64,000 nt of DNA from a virus. This document shows positions 33,376 to 44,114 of the stretch, piece after piece; position 1 is the first letter of the stretch, and each line of letters starts with the position of its first letter. Both the position numbers and the translations under genes were made by a program. Below the pieces are notes generated by a model, which made no database searches, was not told the origin of the DNA, and worked only from the letters and a program-made list of their open reading frames with translations. Location of the stretch: UHGV virus genome UHGV-0098755. One strand, written 5' to 3'.

Positions 33376-33954
33376 TTAATTACCACGGGCTGCATTAGCA
33401 ACGGCATAAGCGTACTGAACATTAGCGTCCTTAAACGTACCTTTAGAGGTATCTATTTCTGCCTTAAAGCCGCCTTTAGCCATAACATCGGCAAATTCTT
33501 TACGGAAAGCCATTGCATCAAGACCTTTCCATGATGATTTGTGCTTAGCGAATTCAAGACCAGCGTAGTTGACAGCCTTAGCTAATTTATTATCAATGAC
33601 CCATTTACCGGCTTTAGGCACAAACTTCGGGCCTTTTTGTTTAGAGAACAGTTTTAAATTCCAGCGACGAAGGTCACTGTCGGCTTTAACAAAAGCTGCG
33701 TCTAAGTTACTAGCAACAACATCTTCAATATGAGCAAATTTAAGTCCGTCAACTTCAATATTTAGATCGTTACGCCAGCGAAGTCCTTCCCAAGCGAAGG
33801 CTTTAAAGTCGGAAGCCTTTGTAGCTAAGTACCGTTCAATAGGAGCTGTTTTAGGGTCAAAGCCGTTTCCCGATCGGTAGGTCCACTCATCTTTATTAAT
33901 GCCTTTGGCCTTTACTATAGAAGCTTCGGCAATAAATTCTTGATAGGTTTTCAT
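33376..33954 (-). CDS. ipIII: capsid-targeted internal protein (IPIII-like)
   Basis: 192 aa; N-terminal capsid-targeting sequence MKTYQEFIAEA with gp21-type I-x-E cleavage site; size as T4 IPIII; early promoter upstream. Confidence 0.7.
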   Translation of the reverse strand: MKTYQEFIAEASIVKAKGINKDEWTYRSGNGFDPKTAPIERYLATKASDFKAFAWEGLRWRNDLNIEVDGLKFAHIEDVVASNLDAAFVKADSDLRRWNLKLFSKQKGPKFVPKAGKWVIDNKLAKAVNYAGLEFAKHKSSWKGLDAMAFRKEFADVMAKGGFKAEIDTSKGTFKDANVQYAYAVANAARGN

Positions 33955-33982
33955 GTGTTTCCTTGTTTGTTTTGATAGAGTA

Positions 33983-34012
33983 ATTATACCATATTAATAC
34001 TTAAGCGTAAAC
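33983..34012 (-). promoter_or_regulatory. T4 early-type promoter upstream of the IPIII-like gene
   Basis: GTTTAC, 18 nt spacer, TGGTATAATTAC. Confidence 0.5.
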
Positions 34013-34015
34013 CGT

Positions 34016-34276
34016 TTAAGCTTTACCGCCAGAAATAATTCCGAAGTTGTTAAAATCATATCCAATATCGTCAACATCTACTTTAGGACTTGCTACAACA
34101 TAAGCAATTTCACTACGTTTTGCACAGGTGTTGATTTCTTTACCATCGCCACCTAAGAAAGAATACCCATTACGTTTTAATGAGCCAAAGTCTTCCGCAT
34201 CACCAATGAAAGCTTTAACTTTAAATTTAGAACCTTTGGCATCTGCTTCAACGATAAATTCTTGATACATTTTCAT
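34016..34276 (-). CDS. capsid-targeted internal protein (IP family, 86 aa)
   Basis: N-terminus MKMYQEFIVEA is a variant capsid-targeting sequence. Confidence 0.6.
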   Translation of the reverse strand: MKMYQEFIVEADAKGSKFKVKAFIGDAEDFGSLKRNGYSFLGGDGKEINTCAKRSEIAYVVASPKVDVDDIGYDFNNFGIISGGKA

Positions 34277-34411
34277 TTTTCCTTAGTAAATTGATTTACC
34301 AAAGTATTTGTACCAAGTCGGACGTTGATCAATTTTTTCATCTAAGCGTGCTTGATTTATCGCAATGGACGCTTCGGACGGGTCATAATTTCCTCCAAGT
34401 AGTTGATGAAT

Positions 34412-34443
34412 ATATAGTATCAAAACCCTTGGAGGAAGTAAAC
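34412..34443 (-). promoter_or_regulatory. T4 early-type promoter inside the denV remnant
   Basis: GTTTACT ... TGATACTATATAT. Confidence 0.45.
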
Positions 34444-34445
34444 AA

Positions 34446-35686
<1,241 letters not shown>

Positions 35687-39587: not shown

Positions 39588-39663
39588 TGGTCGAGGCAGT
39601 AGGGATCGAACCTACGACCCAGGACTTAGAAGGTCCTTGCTCTTCCTTCTGAGCTATGCCTCG
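39588..39663 (-). tRNA. tRNA-Arg (anticodon UCU)
   Basis: Cloverleaf folded by hand: perfect acceptor stem, T-arm GGTTCGATCC, anticodon loop CUUCUAA, CCA encoded. Confidence 0.8.
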
Positions 39664-39667
39664 TATT

Positions 39668-39742
39668 TGGCGGACGTGATAGGATTCGAACCTATAACCA
39701 ATCGCTTAACAGGCGATCGCTCTGCCATTGAGCTACACATCC
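39668..39742 (-). tRNA. tRNA-Asn (anticodon GUU)
   Basis: Hand-folded; D-arm GCTC/GAGC, anticodon stem ATCGC/GCGAT, loop CUGUUAA, T-arm TTCGAAT, CCA encoded. Confidence 0.75.
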
Positions 39743-39746
39743 AAAT

Positions 39747-39833
39747 TGGTGGGGAGTGATGGAGTCGAACCACCCGAGTCGCAATGACAATGGATTTACA
39801 GTCCACACCGCTACCTCTACGGGATAACTCCCC
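39747..39833 (-). tRNA. tRNA-Tyr (anticodon GUA), long variable arm
   Basis: Hand-folded 87 nt; anticodon loop CUGUAAA; long extra arm; T-arm GGTTCGACTCC. Confidence 0.7.
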
Positions 39834-39842
39834 AAATTAATT

Positions 39843-39917
39843 TGGTGGCCCTGGGTGGAATTGAACCACCATCTGGCGATTATGAGTCGCTTGCTTGAAC
39901 CTTCCAGCTACAGGGCC
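39843..39917 (-). tRNA. tRNA with anticodon CAU (Ile2/Met type; T4 tRNA-Ile equivalent)
   Basis: Hand-folded; anticodon loop CUCAUAA; T-arm GGTGGTTCAATTCCACC. Confidence 0.7.
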
Positions 39918-39918
39918 T

Positions 39919-39994
39919 TGGTGCTGATTGACGGAATCGAACCGCCGACCTTCTCATTACAAGTGAGTTGCTCTACCTACTGAGCTAAATCAGC
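39919..39994 (-). tRNA. tRNA-Thr (anticodon UGU)
   Basis: Hand-folded; anticodon loop CUUGUAA; D-arm GCTC/GAGC. Confidence 0.8.
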
Positions 39995-39999
39995 AAAAC

Positions 40000-40089
40000 T
40001 GGCGGAGGCGATAGGATTTGAACCTATGAGTCGCCGGAGCGACTGCCGGTTTTCAAGACCGGTGCATTAAACCACTCTGCCACGCCTCC
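40000..40089 (-). tRNA. tRNA-Ser (anticodon UGA), long variable arm
   Basis: Hand-folded 90 nt; anticodon loop CUUGAAA. Confidence 0.8.
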
Positions 40090-40091
40090 AG

Positions 40092-40165
40092 TCTCCATAC
40101 AAGGATTTGAACCTTGGACCTCCTGATCCCAAATCAGGCGCTCTACCAAACTGAGCTACACGGAG
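40092..40165 (-). tRNA. tRNA-Pro (anticodon UGG), CCA not encoded
   Basis: Hand-folded; anticodon loop UUUGGGA; T-arm AAGGTTCAAATCCTT. Confidence 0.75.
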
Positions 40166-40175
40166 TAAATTAAAT

Positions 40176-40249
<74 letters not shown>

Positions 40250-40254
40250 AAATT

Positions 40255-40341
40255 TGGTGCGAGAAGTGGGACTCGAACCCACAAGGAAATCATTCCGCAG
40301 CATTTTAAGTGCTGTGCCTTTACCAATTTGACCATTCTCGC
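40255..40341 (-). tRNA. tRNA-Leu (anticodon UAA), long variable arm
   Basis: Hand-folded 87 nt; anticodon loop CUUAAAA. Confidence 0.8.
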
Positions 40342-40342
40342 G

Positions 40343-40415
40343 CTGGGAATAAAGGACTCGAACCTTTGCATCTAGCAGTCAAAGTGCTATGCCTTACCAA
40401 CTTGGCTAATTCCCA
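40343..40415 (-). tRNA. tRNA-Gln (anticodon UUG), CCA not encoded
   Basis: Hand-folded; anticodon loop CUUUGAC; abuts tRNA-Leu 5' end. Confidence 0.75.
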
Positions 40416-41025: not shown

Positions 41026-41315
41026 GCTGCATTAATGTAAGTATATTTAATACATTCAAGACCCAAAGGATTCTTGAAAATATCATATTCAAGAGGACCT
41101 TTTTCTGTTTCAATAAAGAAATCAAAATTTACTGTATTAAATTTACGGTCTTCCTTTACTAATTTAACTTGAGAAGATGAACGGTCAATGTAAACCTTTT
41201 CAACTTCAAAACATGTTAAAATGCCATAATCATCAATCAAGGCTTTAGCCGCATCTTGATCATATTTATATCCATTTTCAATGGATGATACTTTCGCATA
41301 AAGAATCACTATCAA
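41019..41315 (-). CDS. hypothetical protein
   Basis: 98 aa. Confidence 0.45.
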   Translation of the reverse strand: MIVILYAKVSSIENGYKYDQDAAKALIDDYGILTCFEVEKVYIDRSSSQVKLVKEDRKFNTVNFDFFIETEKGPLEYDIFKNPLGLECIKYTYINAAW

Positions 41316-41722
41316 CCTCTATCAACAATAGCATGAGTATGGGCATTTACAATTTGCCACCAATCGAAACGATTGGAACCATAATCTGGTTTATTTTCAT
41401 TTTCTTTAATGATATCACGCAGTTTATCTTCTGTTTCAGCATACGCAATTAAATCATCATATCCACCACAAGGATAATAATTATCACCCGCGAATAAAAG
41501 AAAATTTACCTTAGATGGATTTACGTAATAATGGTCTTTAGGATATTTAGTTCCTCTCCAATCAGTTACTTCAACATAACGATAAGAAAATCCATTTTTA
41601 CTTTCAATCCAACTCCACGCTTCAAAAGGAGTATTAAAAACTTTATCAGGTATTAAATTACCTTCAAAATGAGAAGGATTTGCATAATCCCCGGCATAAA
41701 CATAATATTCGTTAATACTCAT
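41312..41722 (-). CDS. hypothetical protein
   Basis: 136 aa, aromatic-rich. Confidence 0.5.
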   Translation of the reverse strand: MSINEYYVYAGDYANPSHFEGNLIPDKVFNTPFEAWSWIESKNGFSYRYVEVTDWRGTKYPKDHYYVNPSKVNFLLFAGDNYYPCGGYDDLIAYAETEDKLRDIIKENENKPDYGSNRFDWWQIVNAHTHAIVDRG

Positions 41723-41908
41723 TTATTCACCTTTAGAAATTTTATCCATAACGATAGCGATTAAACCAATTAAAAATGCTACTACAAGTGAAAACACATT
41801 TTCTGCTGTAGTTAATAATCCGCATATAAATCCAGCAAACATTGAAAAACTAAAAGCGGAAGCAGAAATTGCAATAGCAACATTTCGAATTAATTCACAA
41901 CGTTTCAT
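41723..41908 (-). CDS. small membrane protein
   Basis: 61 aa, two hydrophobic helices; early promoter upstream. Confidence 0.45.
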   Translation of the reverse strand: MKRCELIRNVAIAISASAFSFSMFAGFICGLLTTAENVFSLVVAFLIGLIAIVMDKISKGE

Positions 41909-41935
41909 TTTATTCTCCTCAGTAGTTGATAGGGT

Positions 41936-41967
41936 AATAATATCACTACCCCATCTAAAAGTAAACG
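41936..41967 (-). promoter_or_regulatory. T4 early-type promoter
   Basis: GTTTAC ... TGATATTATTACC. Confidence 0.5.
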
Positions 41968-41976
41968 GTTTATAAA

Positions 41977-42285
41977 CTATTTTATTCCGCGTGATGCAAT
42001 TGTGTTCTGCCGTTTAACGCCAGTTTGTTTAAAGTCATGATTGTCAATTTGATCGGTACGAGCAACTCCGAATGATGATTTGATCTTAGCTTTAGATCCT
42101 TTAGTTATAGAAATAAACATCTCGGAAGCCCCTTTCTTAAAGTCCGAGGCGATTACTTCAACGCCGTTCTTAGCAAGTGACTTCAGAATTGCCTCTGCAT
42201 ACTCATCGTCAAGACTCGTCTGAGTATTAATAACGAATGTCTTTGGCGCAGCCGCTTCATTGATAAATTCTTTAAATGTTTTCAT
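41977..42285 (-). CDS. capsid-targeted internal protein (IP family, 102 aa)
   Basis: N-terminus MKTFKEFINEA is a variant capsid-targeting sequence; own early promoter; at the ipI locus. Confidence 0.6.
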   Translation of the reverse strand: MKTFKEFINEAAAPKTFVINTQTSLDDEYAEAILKSLAKNGVEVIASDFKKGASEMFISITKGSKAKIKSSFGVARTDQIDNHDFKQTGVKRQNTIASRGIK

Positions 42286-42313
42286 TTTATTTTCCTAATT
42301 AATTTTTGATGAG

Positions 42314-42347
42314 ATAATAGTATCACAACCCTATTTAAAAGTAAACT
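42314..42347 (-). promoter_or_regulatory. T4 early-type promoter for the 102 aa IP gene
   Basis: GTTTACT ... TGATACTATTATC. Confidence 0.5.
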
Positions 42348-42619
42348 CATTTTAAATAAATTGCGTATTTTTTATAACCCGCTGACTCATGACGAAGACC
42401 CTTATCATTAGCAAAACGCTCAATGTTGTTAATTTGATTCTGGTCAAGTTCAGAGATGTCAAACACGAAAAAATTACGTTTGTTACCAACTGTTACATAG
42501 TCAGTTAAATCAATATCATATAGGTAATTGATGTCAGCAATCAAAGTCTTGACAGCTTTGCTAATTTTTACTTTTTCGTTAAAAGCAGCTTCAGCAATAA
42601 ATTCTTGATACGTTTTCAT
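42347..42619 (-). CDS. capsid-targeted internal protein (IP family, 90 aa)
   Basis: N-terminus MKTYQEFIAEA is the canonical T4 capsid-targeting sequence; own early promoter. Confidence 0.65.
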   Translation of the reverse strand: MKTYQEFIAEAAFNEKVKISKAVKTLIADINYLYDIDLTDYVTVGNKRNFFVFDISELDQNQINNIERFANDKGLRHESAGYKKYAIYLK

Positions 42620-42647
42620 TTTATTTTCCTAATTAATTTTGATGAGG

Positions 42648-42680
42648 TAATAGTATCACTACTAAAACCCCATGTAAACA
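42648..42680 (-). promoter_or_regulatory. T4 early-type promoter for the 90 aa IP gene
   Basis: TGTTTACA ... TGATACTATTACC. Confidence 0.5.
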
Positions 42681-42691
42681 ACTTTGTGAAA

Positions 42692-43388
<697 letters not shown>

Positions 43389-43389
<1 letters not shown>

Positions 43390-44114
43390 TATAGTACCTT
43401 TAGTGTATTTTTAATTTTAGAAAAAAGTTCTTCAAGAGAACCATCGTTTGTAATTACTAAATCGCCATCACGAATTGGCAATCCAGCTTCTGTAATATGT
43501 GTATCATTGGATTTTTGACCAGGACGAACTACATGAATTACTGTAGCACCCATCGCCCTAGCCGCATCCATTTCATGATCTTGACGAGTATCAGGAACGA
43601 TATAATAATCATAACCTGAGTTAAATTTATCAAGATAATCTAAAGCAAATAATTTTACCCAATACATGCGGTCGAAGTTATTAACAATCAAATCCGTACC
43701 TAGGGCTTGCATCAGACGACGGACTGACCATTGATCTTCAATATTATTTATAACGTCAGCAATCTTGTTAAATGCTACGAAAGTAACTGATTCCTTTCCT
43801 TCGTCATCAAAAACAAACACACCTTTAATTGGGCTTTTACTATTAAGATAGCAAAATGCTTGTTCCATAATCGTAATTACTTCTAATTTAGTCAGATTTA
43901 AATTAGTCTCACGATCATAGTCAATTCCTTCAAACTCTTTACGAGTTAAACAAGGATAGTCAGTGTTTGCTGCAAATACTCCCCATGCATAAGCCAATGC
44001 ATCTTTAATAGGACCAGCAAGTTGATATTTAACTGCAGAATAATTATTCATGATAAAATCTGCAGTAGTATCTTTTCCACTACGCTTTACACCACTTAAA
44101 AAGATTAGTTTCAT
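43389..44114 (-). CDS. 1: deoxynucleoside monophosphate kinase gp1
   Basis: 241 aa; P-loop GVKRSGKDT. Confidence 0.9.

Follow-up and report, generated by a model that had tools for sequence, protein, structure and literature searches.

We analyzed a window of 64,000 nucleotides of the virus genome UHGV-0098755 and found that it is a Tequatrovirus sequence, with about 96-97% identity over 24 kb to phages vB_Eco-B1.1 and G4498. Two small genes, ip7 and ip9, lie on the minus strand between 57B and tRNA.4. A first-pass annotation of the same DNA had reported two open reading frames here, in the slot where T4 has the single gene ipI, and both are present at exactly those coordinates, on the minus strand and with ATG starts; the order 57B, internal-protein genes, tRNA.4 likewise agrees with that in T4 and RB32. 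The locus and its boundaries are as follows.

41723-41908, minus: tRNA.4, encoding a hydrophobic protein of 61 aa; conserved downstream boundary (phrog_1692, E 5.4e-35; same place in T4, RB32 and N2)
41977-42285, minus: ip7, open reading frame for a 102-aa precursor, MKTFKEFINEA..., ATG start (98-99% identity to RB32/RB15 Ip7; phrog_2667, E 5.2e-41)
42347-42619, minus: ip9, open reading frame for a 90-aa precursor, MKTYQEFIAEA..., ATG start (96-98% identity to RB32/RB15 Ip9; phrog_7673, E 3.7e-55)
42692-43147, minus: 57B, encoding a homologue of the anti-CBASS phosphodiesterase Acb1; it forms the conserved upstream border of the ipI locus (Pfam PF23474 Acb1, E 2.6e-60; same place in T4 and RB32)

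The PHROG families phrog_2667 and phrog_7673, both labelled "internal head protein", cover Ip7 and Ip9 end to end, and the gene order around ip7 and ip9 is the one found around ipI in T4 and also in RB32. Gene 1 (dNMP kinase), 57A and 57B lie transcriptionally upstream of ip9, and ip7 is followed by tRNA.4, tRNA.3, tRNA.2, an ORF of 149 aa and, after these, ten tRNA genes in a block (39588-40415). The pair does lie between the tRNA region and 57B, with four ORFs separating ip7 from the tRNA cluster. The cluster itself (minus strand) contains ten contiguous genes, for Arg, Asn, Tyr, Met(CAT), Thr, Ser, Pro, Gly, Leu and Gln, compared to eight in T4, and unlike in T4 and RB32, no ORF of a size sufficient for the segB homing endonuclease lies inside it. 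At the other end, the locus is bordered by a known counter-defence gene, 57B, which is labelled "RNA ligase" in PHROGs and RefSeq despite its clear Pfam match to Acb1, an anti-CBASS 2H phosphodiesterase.

The interval between 57B and tRNA.4 is one of two variable internal-protein loci, the other being next to gene e. At that second locus (33376-34727, minus), which adjoins gene e (34724-35212), we found three further ORFs with the targeting sequence.

33376-33954, minus: IPIII-like ORF, 192 aa (phrog_5341, E 9e-118)
34016-34276, minus: 86-aa ORF, MKMYQEFIVEA... (phrog_2667, the Ip7 PHROG, E 1.9e-19; pairwise BLASTP against Ip7 not significant)
34446-34727, minus: Ip5-like ORF, 93 aa from MKTYSEF (48% identity to Ip5, E 1e-24)

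Counting ip7 and ip9, the window thus has genes for no fewer than five internal proteins. The second locus has an Ip5-like gene, while the ipI locus has no Ip5.

Predicted early promoters and a direct-repeat cassette

A match to the T4-type early promoter lies before each of ip9 and ip7, and in terms of such matches the suggestion that each gene has its own early promoter holds. A third match lies before tRNA.4, and all three are embedded in copies of a direct repeat of about 105 nt that runs through the promoter, leader, ribosome-binding site (AGGA) and first 12 codons, which hold the targeting sequence.

41873-41976, minus: repeat copy 1, with a more diverged leader of the tRNA.4 type (repeat search and alignment)
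41937-41966, minus: third early promoter match, before tRNA.4, GTTTAC-N15-TGATATTAT (pattern match; aligns with the T4 region before tRNA.4)
42250-42356, minus: repeat copy 2, before ip7 (repeat search and alignment)
42317-42346, minus: T4-type early promoter match before ip7, GTTTAC-N15-TGATACTAT (pattern match)
42584-42689, minus: repeat copy 3, before ip9 (repeat families D1 and D2, and alignment)
42650-42679, minus: T4-type early promoter match before ip9, GTTTAC-N15 and the extended -10 TGATACTAT (pattern match; aligns with the promoter before T4 ipI)

All three sites have the -35 sequence GTTTAC, a 17-bp spacer from TTTAC(A/T), the extended -10 TGnTA(C/T)TAT and the orientation of T4 early promoters, with predicted starts. 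In alignment, the three copies fall on the T4 regions before ipI and tRNA.4. The pattern GTTTAC-N15-TGNTAYTAT was found ten times in the window, every time on the minus strand (10/10), compared to no match in 100 shuffles, and three of the ten matches are at the ip locus. As a side product, these matches give a candidate early-promoter map of the window (minus strand; 10362, 21049, 22490, 22969, 27157, 34414, 38718, 41937, 42317 and 42650). A generic sigma-70 scan with a cut-off of 9/12 consensus positions detected two of the three locus promoters, the ip7 copy scoring 8/12.

The -35 hexamer of the ip7 promoter begins two bases past the ip9 stop codon, which leaves no room for a terminator, and no terminator-like sites were found in 41200-43500. 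We found stem-loops over the -10 before ip9 (42620-42695, minus; two shorter stacked stems, about -16 kcal/mol, z -3.2) and before tRNA.4 (41909-41980, minus; a 12-bp stem, about -16 kcal/mol, z -2.0), in agreement with the "weaker AT-rich stem-loops" of PMC2839356; the promoter before ip7, unlike the other two copies, has no stem-loop. We also considered a late promoter feeding ip7 or ip9 and rejected it, as neither gene has TATAAATA directly upstream; the only such late-promoter motifs near the locus are at 43745-43752 (minus, inside gene 1) and 41263-41270 (minus, inside tRNA.2). Since the motif is absent from both upstream regions, sequence alone does not explain how the proteins are supplied during head assembly.

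The repeat corresponds to the shuffling cassette known from earlier work on this locus, and promoter-based elements at both internal-protein loci were tied to locus plasticity by Repoila et al. 1994, in the account given by Arbiol et al. 2010 (PMC2839356). The PeSL cassettes of RB49/phi1-type phages (Arbiol et al. 2010, PMC2839356) are comparable: early promoters recur around small accessory ORFs, in some cases together with a stem-loop, and give the homology that modular shuffling needs; here a stem-loop covers the -10 in two of the three copies. In that paper's own words, however, PeSL cassettes and the locus repeats are analogues, not homologues, and the repeats in the window differ in being built on T4-type early promoters, in having weak AT-rich stems and in reaching into the targeting codons.

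To the scale of whole cassettes, the content of the 57B-tRNA.4 interval differs between phages, as the first-pass description of a polymorphic locus implied.

T4: ipI
T2: Ip5-Ip7
RB32: Ip5-Ip9-Ip7
RB15 and VEc74: Ip5-Ip9-Ip7-Ip8
the window and phage N2 (ON645936): Ip9-Ip7

RB32 and RB15 share with the window orthologous Ip7 (98-99%) and Ip9 (96-98%) at the same locus, in the order ip9 then ip7 and with flanking promoter repeats, and the RB32 annotation remarks "flanked by 43 bp direct repeat". They differ from it in having Ip5 between 57B and ip9, RB15 also in having Ip8, and RB32 in its leader before ip9, which in the window is of the ipI/Ip5 type. In alignment, the ip9 cassette of the window is a mosaic, with a spacer like that before Ip9 in RB32 and a leader like that before ipI in T4 or before Ip5 in RB32, as a recombination within the repeat that removed Ip5 would be expected to produce. 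Phage N2 has the identical two-gene arrangement, which GenBank therefore already contained. The literature since 1994 has covered the genes and their names, the polymorphic nature of the locus and the model of shuffling by promoter repeats.

On the other hand, the description of these genes as strain-specific does not stand, since Ip7 and Ip9 are common alleles. By tblastn, mature Ip7 was found in 284 phage records, including T2 and Enterobacter phage CC31, with many Klebsiella phages and VR7-type coliphages at 43-50% identity, and mature Ip9 was found in 194 phage records. A 77-aa "ip7" of Escherichia phage OLB35 is an in-frame hybrid of Ip7 (residues ~29-72) and the Ip9 C-terminus (~59-90) without the targeting sequence; it looks like either a deletion that fused the neighboring genes or an annotation from an internal Met.

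Targeting peptides, predicted processing and cargo domains

Ip7 and Ip9 share an N-terminus of the form MKT[FY][KQ]EFI.E, which alignment also places in T4 IPI, Ip5 and Ip8; M1, K2, T3 and F7 are invariant across all five proteins. The targeting sequence corresponds to residues 1-10 in both proteins, MKTFKEFINE in Ip7 (codons 42256-42285) and MKTYQEFIAE in Ip9 (codons 42590-42619). Its codons vary synonymously between the genes (ACG/ACA/ACT, TTT/TTC, ATT/ATC), which points to selection on the peptide and not on the DNA repeat alone. The first 11 residues of Ip9, MKTYQEFIAEA, are identical to those of the IPIII-like ORF at the second locus, and T4 IPII and IPIII presumably start with the same residues.

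An [LI]xE motif of the type recognized by the gp21 prohead protease is present at residues 8-10, as I-N-E in Ip7 and I-A-E in Ip9. In T4 IPI, which served as a control, the I-T-E motif ends at residue 19 and the solved structure of mature IPI* (2JUB) begins at residue 20. Cleavage at the corresponding position would yield a mature Ip7* of 92 aa (predicted 9.9 kDa, pI 9.65) and a mature Ip9* of 80 aa (predicted 9.3 kDa, pI 8.2). A second I-x-E motif in Ip9, at residues 55-57 within the folded domain, counts against this reading. For Ip7 and Ip9, the searchable literature yielded neither virion proteomics nor data on cleavage.

Past the targeting sequence, the two proteins are related neither to each other nor to T4 IPI. 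Paralogy of Ip7 and Ip9 was rejected, their mutual similarity being limited to residues 1-12. The first-pass annotation saw no likeness to T4 IPI beyond the targeting sequence, and BLASTP bears this out, aligning just residues 1-24 of Ip7 and 1-9 of Ip9; similarity to the mature IPI* region (residues 20-95), named beforehand as the contrary result, was absent from both proteins in the same comparison. The IPI* fold (PDB 2JUB) was also not among the top structural matches listed for the Ip7 or Ip9 models. These models are of moderate confidence, with an alpha/beta sandwich for Ip9 (pLDDT 78) and a ferredoxin-like core for Ip7 (pLDDT 69), whose basic, Lys/Arg-rich C-terminal tail (pLDDT <50) is probably disordered, and they match generic small folds only. 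Searches of Pfam, PADLOC and PDB sequences with Ip7 and Ip9 returned nothing above threshold, and we discarded the sub-threshold matches as noise (Mur_ligase_M, E 0.021; Csn2, E 0.006; PDB matches, E > 0.6). No likeness in fold or sequence to known anti-defence proteins was found for either protein.

T4 IPI (Ip1; IPI*, PDB 2JUB), the inhibitor of GmrSD-CT596, nevertheless resembles Ip7 and Ip9 in its slot, its promoter cassette, its N-terminal targeting peptide with an I-x-E site and, in the mature form, its similar size and basic charge. It differs in being cut after residue 19, compared to a predicted cut after residue 10 in Ip7 and Ip9, in the unrelated sequence of its mature region, and in having a known GmrSD target, when none was found for Ip7 or Ip9 in a published screen. 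T4 Ip2 and Ip3, inhibitors of GmrSD-ECOR21 and GmrSD-ECOR17, follow the same packaging logic but are encoded at a different locus and carry cargo domains unrelated to those of Ip7 and Ip9.

Possible roles of Ip7 and Ip9 in the infected cell

T4 internal proteins are packaged by means of the targeting sequence and then injected, the sequence is sufficient to bring foreign proteins into T4 heads, and about 1000 molecules of internal protein lie within the packaged T4 DNA (PMC3012670). We identify ip7 and ip9 as two known alleles of the polymorphic set of T-even internal (head) proteins, at the Tequatrovirus ipI locus, and, following this established T4 biology, consider it probable that their products are packaged, cleaved and injected. 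Each gene is a self-contained cassette in which a predicted T4-type early promoter and a ribosome-binding site precede about ten targeting codons, which lead into an unrelated cargo domain. The precursors would enter the scaffolding core of the prohead by means of the targeting sequence, and the gp21 prohead protease would then cleave after Glu10 (I-N-E|A in Ip7, I-A-E|A in Ip9). The basic mature proteins of 9-10 kDa would stay in the head with the DNA and be ejected with it into the cell, where they would most likely neutralize a host defence against incoming DNA, as T4 Ip1, Ip2 and Ip3 do. The DNA of the repeated cassette offers homology for the gain, loss or swap of whole ip genes between phages.

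T4 Ip1, Ip2 and Ip3 each inhibit a type IV restriction enzyme of the GmrSD family, a different one in each case (Silas et al. 2025, PMC12373910), and an anti-restriction or anti-defence role of Ip7 and Ip9 is a reasonable analogy with these three proteins. A test of ip4-10 against the GmrSD clusters that showed activity gave no reproducible inhibition (Silas et al. 2025, PMC12373910, section 10, Supplementary Fig. 9), and an apparent signal of ip7 with CLS_011 failed to repeat (PMC12373910). T2 is restricted by GmrSD-ECOR21 and GmrSD-ECOR17; since T2 has an Ip7 (98.9% identity to Ip7 of the window), Ip7 does not block those two enzymes. Given the negative screen of ip4-10 and our empty searches, the anti-restriction reading stays a reasonable analogy.

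A new observation here is that unrelated phages also carry the cargo domain of Ip9, in forms that lack the targeting sequence. In the siphovirus Kagunavirus JSSK01 (OQ442786, 40102-40320), a stand-alone 72-aa protein matches positions 20-90 of phrog_7673 (E 6.8e-27) and is 50% identical to Ip9 by tblastn; its gene is the first of a block of small ORFs. In Ackermannviridae, the domain forms the C-terminus of proteins of 667-861 aa, such as gp130 of Agtrevirus ChubbyThor. This large protein gave no further lead: it has no Pfam domain and, among its 356 phage matches, those listed are hypothetical or unannotated. An exhaustive profile search of 1.8 billion representative proteins placed the Ip9 domain in just 14 clusters at 50% identity, some with targeting-like N-termini and others without. 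This distribution fits a modular picture in which a targeting sequence is joined to a borrowed effector, and it mildly favors a target that is independent of glucosyl-hmC DNA. Kagunavirus and Ackermannviridae phages are not known to carry glucosyl-hmC DNA, and their DNA chemistry differs from that of the T-evens.

It is possible, though on balance unlikely, that Ip7 and Ip9, once injected, act on another defence or host process and not on a type IV restriction enzyme that depends on glucosyl-hmC. This explanation concerns Ip9 above all; here T4-like phages would have added a targeting sequence to a cargo domain that serves phages as a general-purpose accessory module. The explanation is favored by the stand-alone and C-terminal forms of the domain in JSSK01 and Ackermannviridae, by carrier phages that are not known to have glucosyl-hmC DNA, by the negative results of both ip9 and ip7 in the GmrSD screen and by the neighboring 57B, an anti-CBASS enzyme. 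However, Ip1, Ip2 and Ip3, the three internal proteins whose function is known, all act on enzymes of the GmrSD family. This family is highly diverse, and in the published test just a part of its clusters showed activity. Nor was any similarity of Ip7 or Ip9 to a known anti-defence protein found.

We find it improbable that the two proteins are generic structural or DNA-associated contents of the head, which would neutralize charge or aid packaging or ejection and have no host target. The basic pI predicted for both mature proteins (9.65 and 8.2), the Lys/Arg-rich, probably disordered tail of Ip7 and the roughly 1000 internal protein molecules within packaged T4 DNA (PMC3012670) are consistent with such a role, but it leaves unexplained the unrelated cargo folds, the presence or absence of whole cassettes and the variable copy number in close relatives. 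In addition, Ip9 is barely basic, its domain appears from sequence to serve a siphovirus as a non-packaged protein, and the three T4 internal proteins of known function all have specific host targets. Least probable is that Ip7 and Ip9 are unpackaged early cytoplasmic proteins whose shared N-terminus is a by-product of the recombination repeat: the repeat does span the promoter through the first 12 codons, only early-type promoters adjoin the genes and relatives of Ip9 without the N-terminal sequence exist, but the targeting codons differ synonymously, the same peptide is found on three second-locus ORFs in a different DNA context, the protease motif sits exactly at residues 8-10 and the targeting sequence alone brings foreign proteins into T4 heads (PMC3012670).

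Our preferred reading remains that Ip7 and Ip9 are packaged, injected and probably directed against host defence, as T4 biology suggests. Targets are known for Ip1, Ip2 and Ip3 alone; the sole published screen was negative for Ip7 and Ip9. As a tentative proposal, which we hold with considerable doubt, the Ip9 cargo may be a small mobile effector family that is injected in T4-like phages, free in Kagunavirus and fused in Ackermannviridae. Since the DNA chemistry of these carriers differs, the target of Ip9 would then be a host defence or host factor that does not depend on glucosyl-hmC. If this is true, Ip9 would be the first T-even internal protein aimed beyond type IV restriction enzymes. 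The non-targeted form of the Ip9 domain is in any case a practical handle, as its target could be searched for by expression and pull-down without injection.
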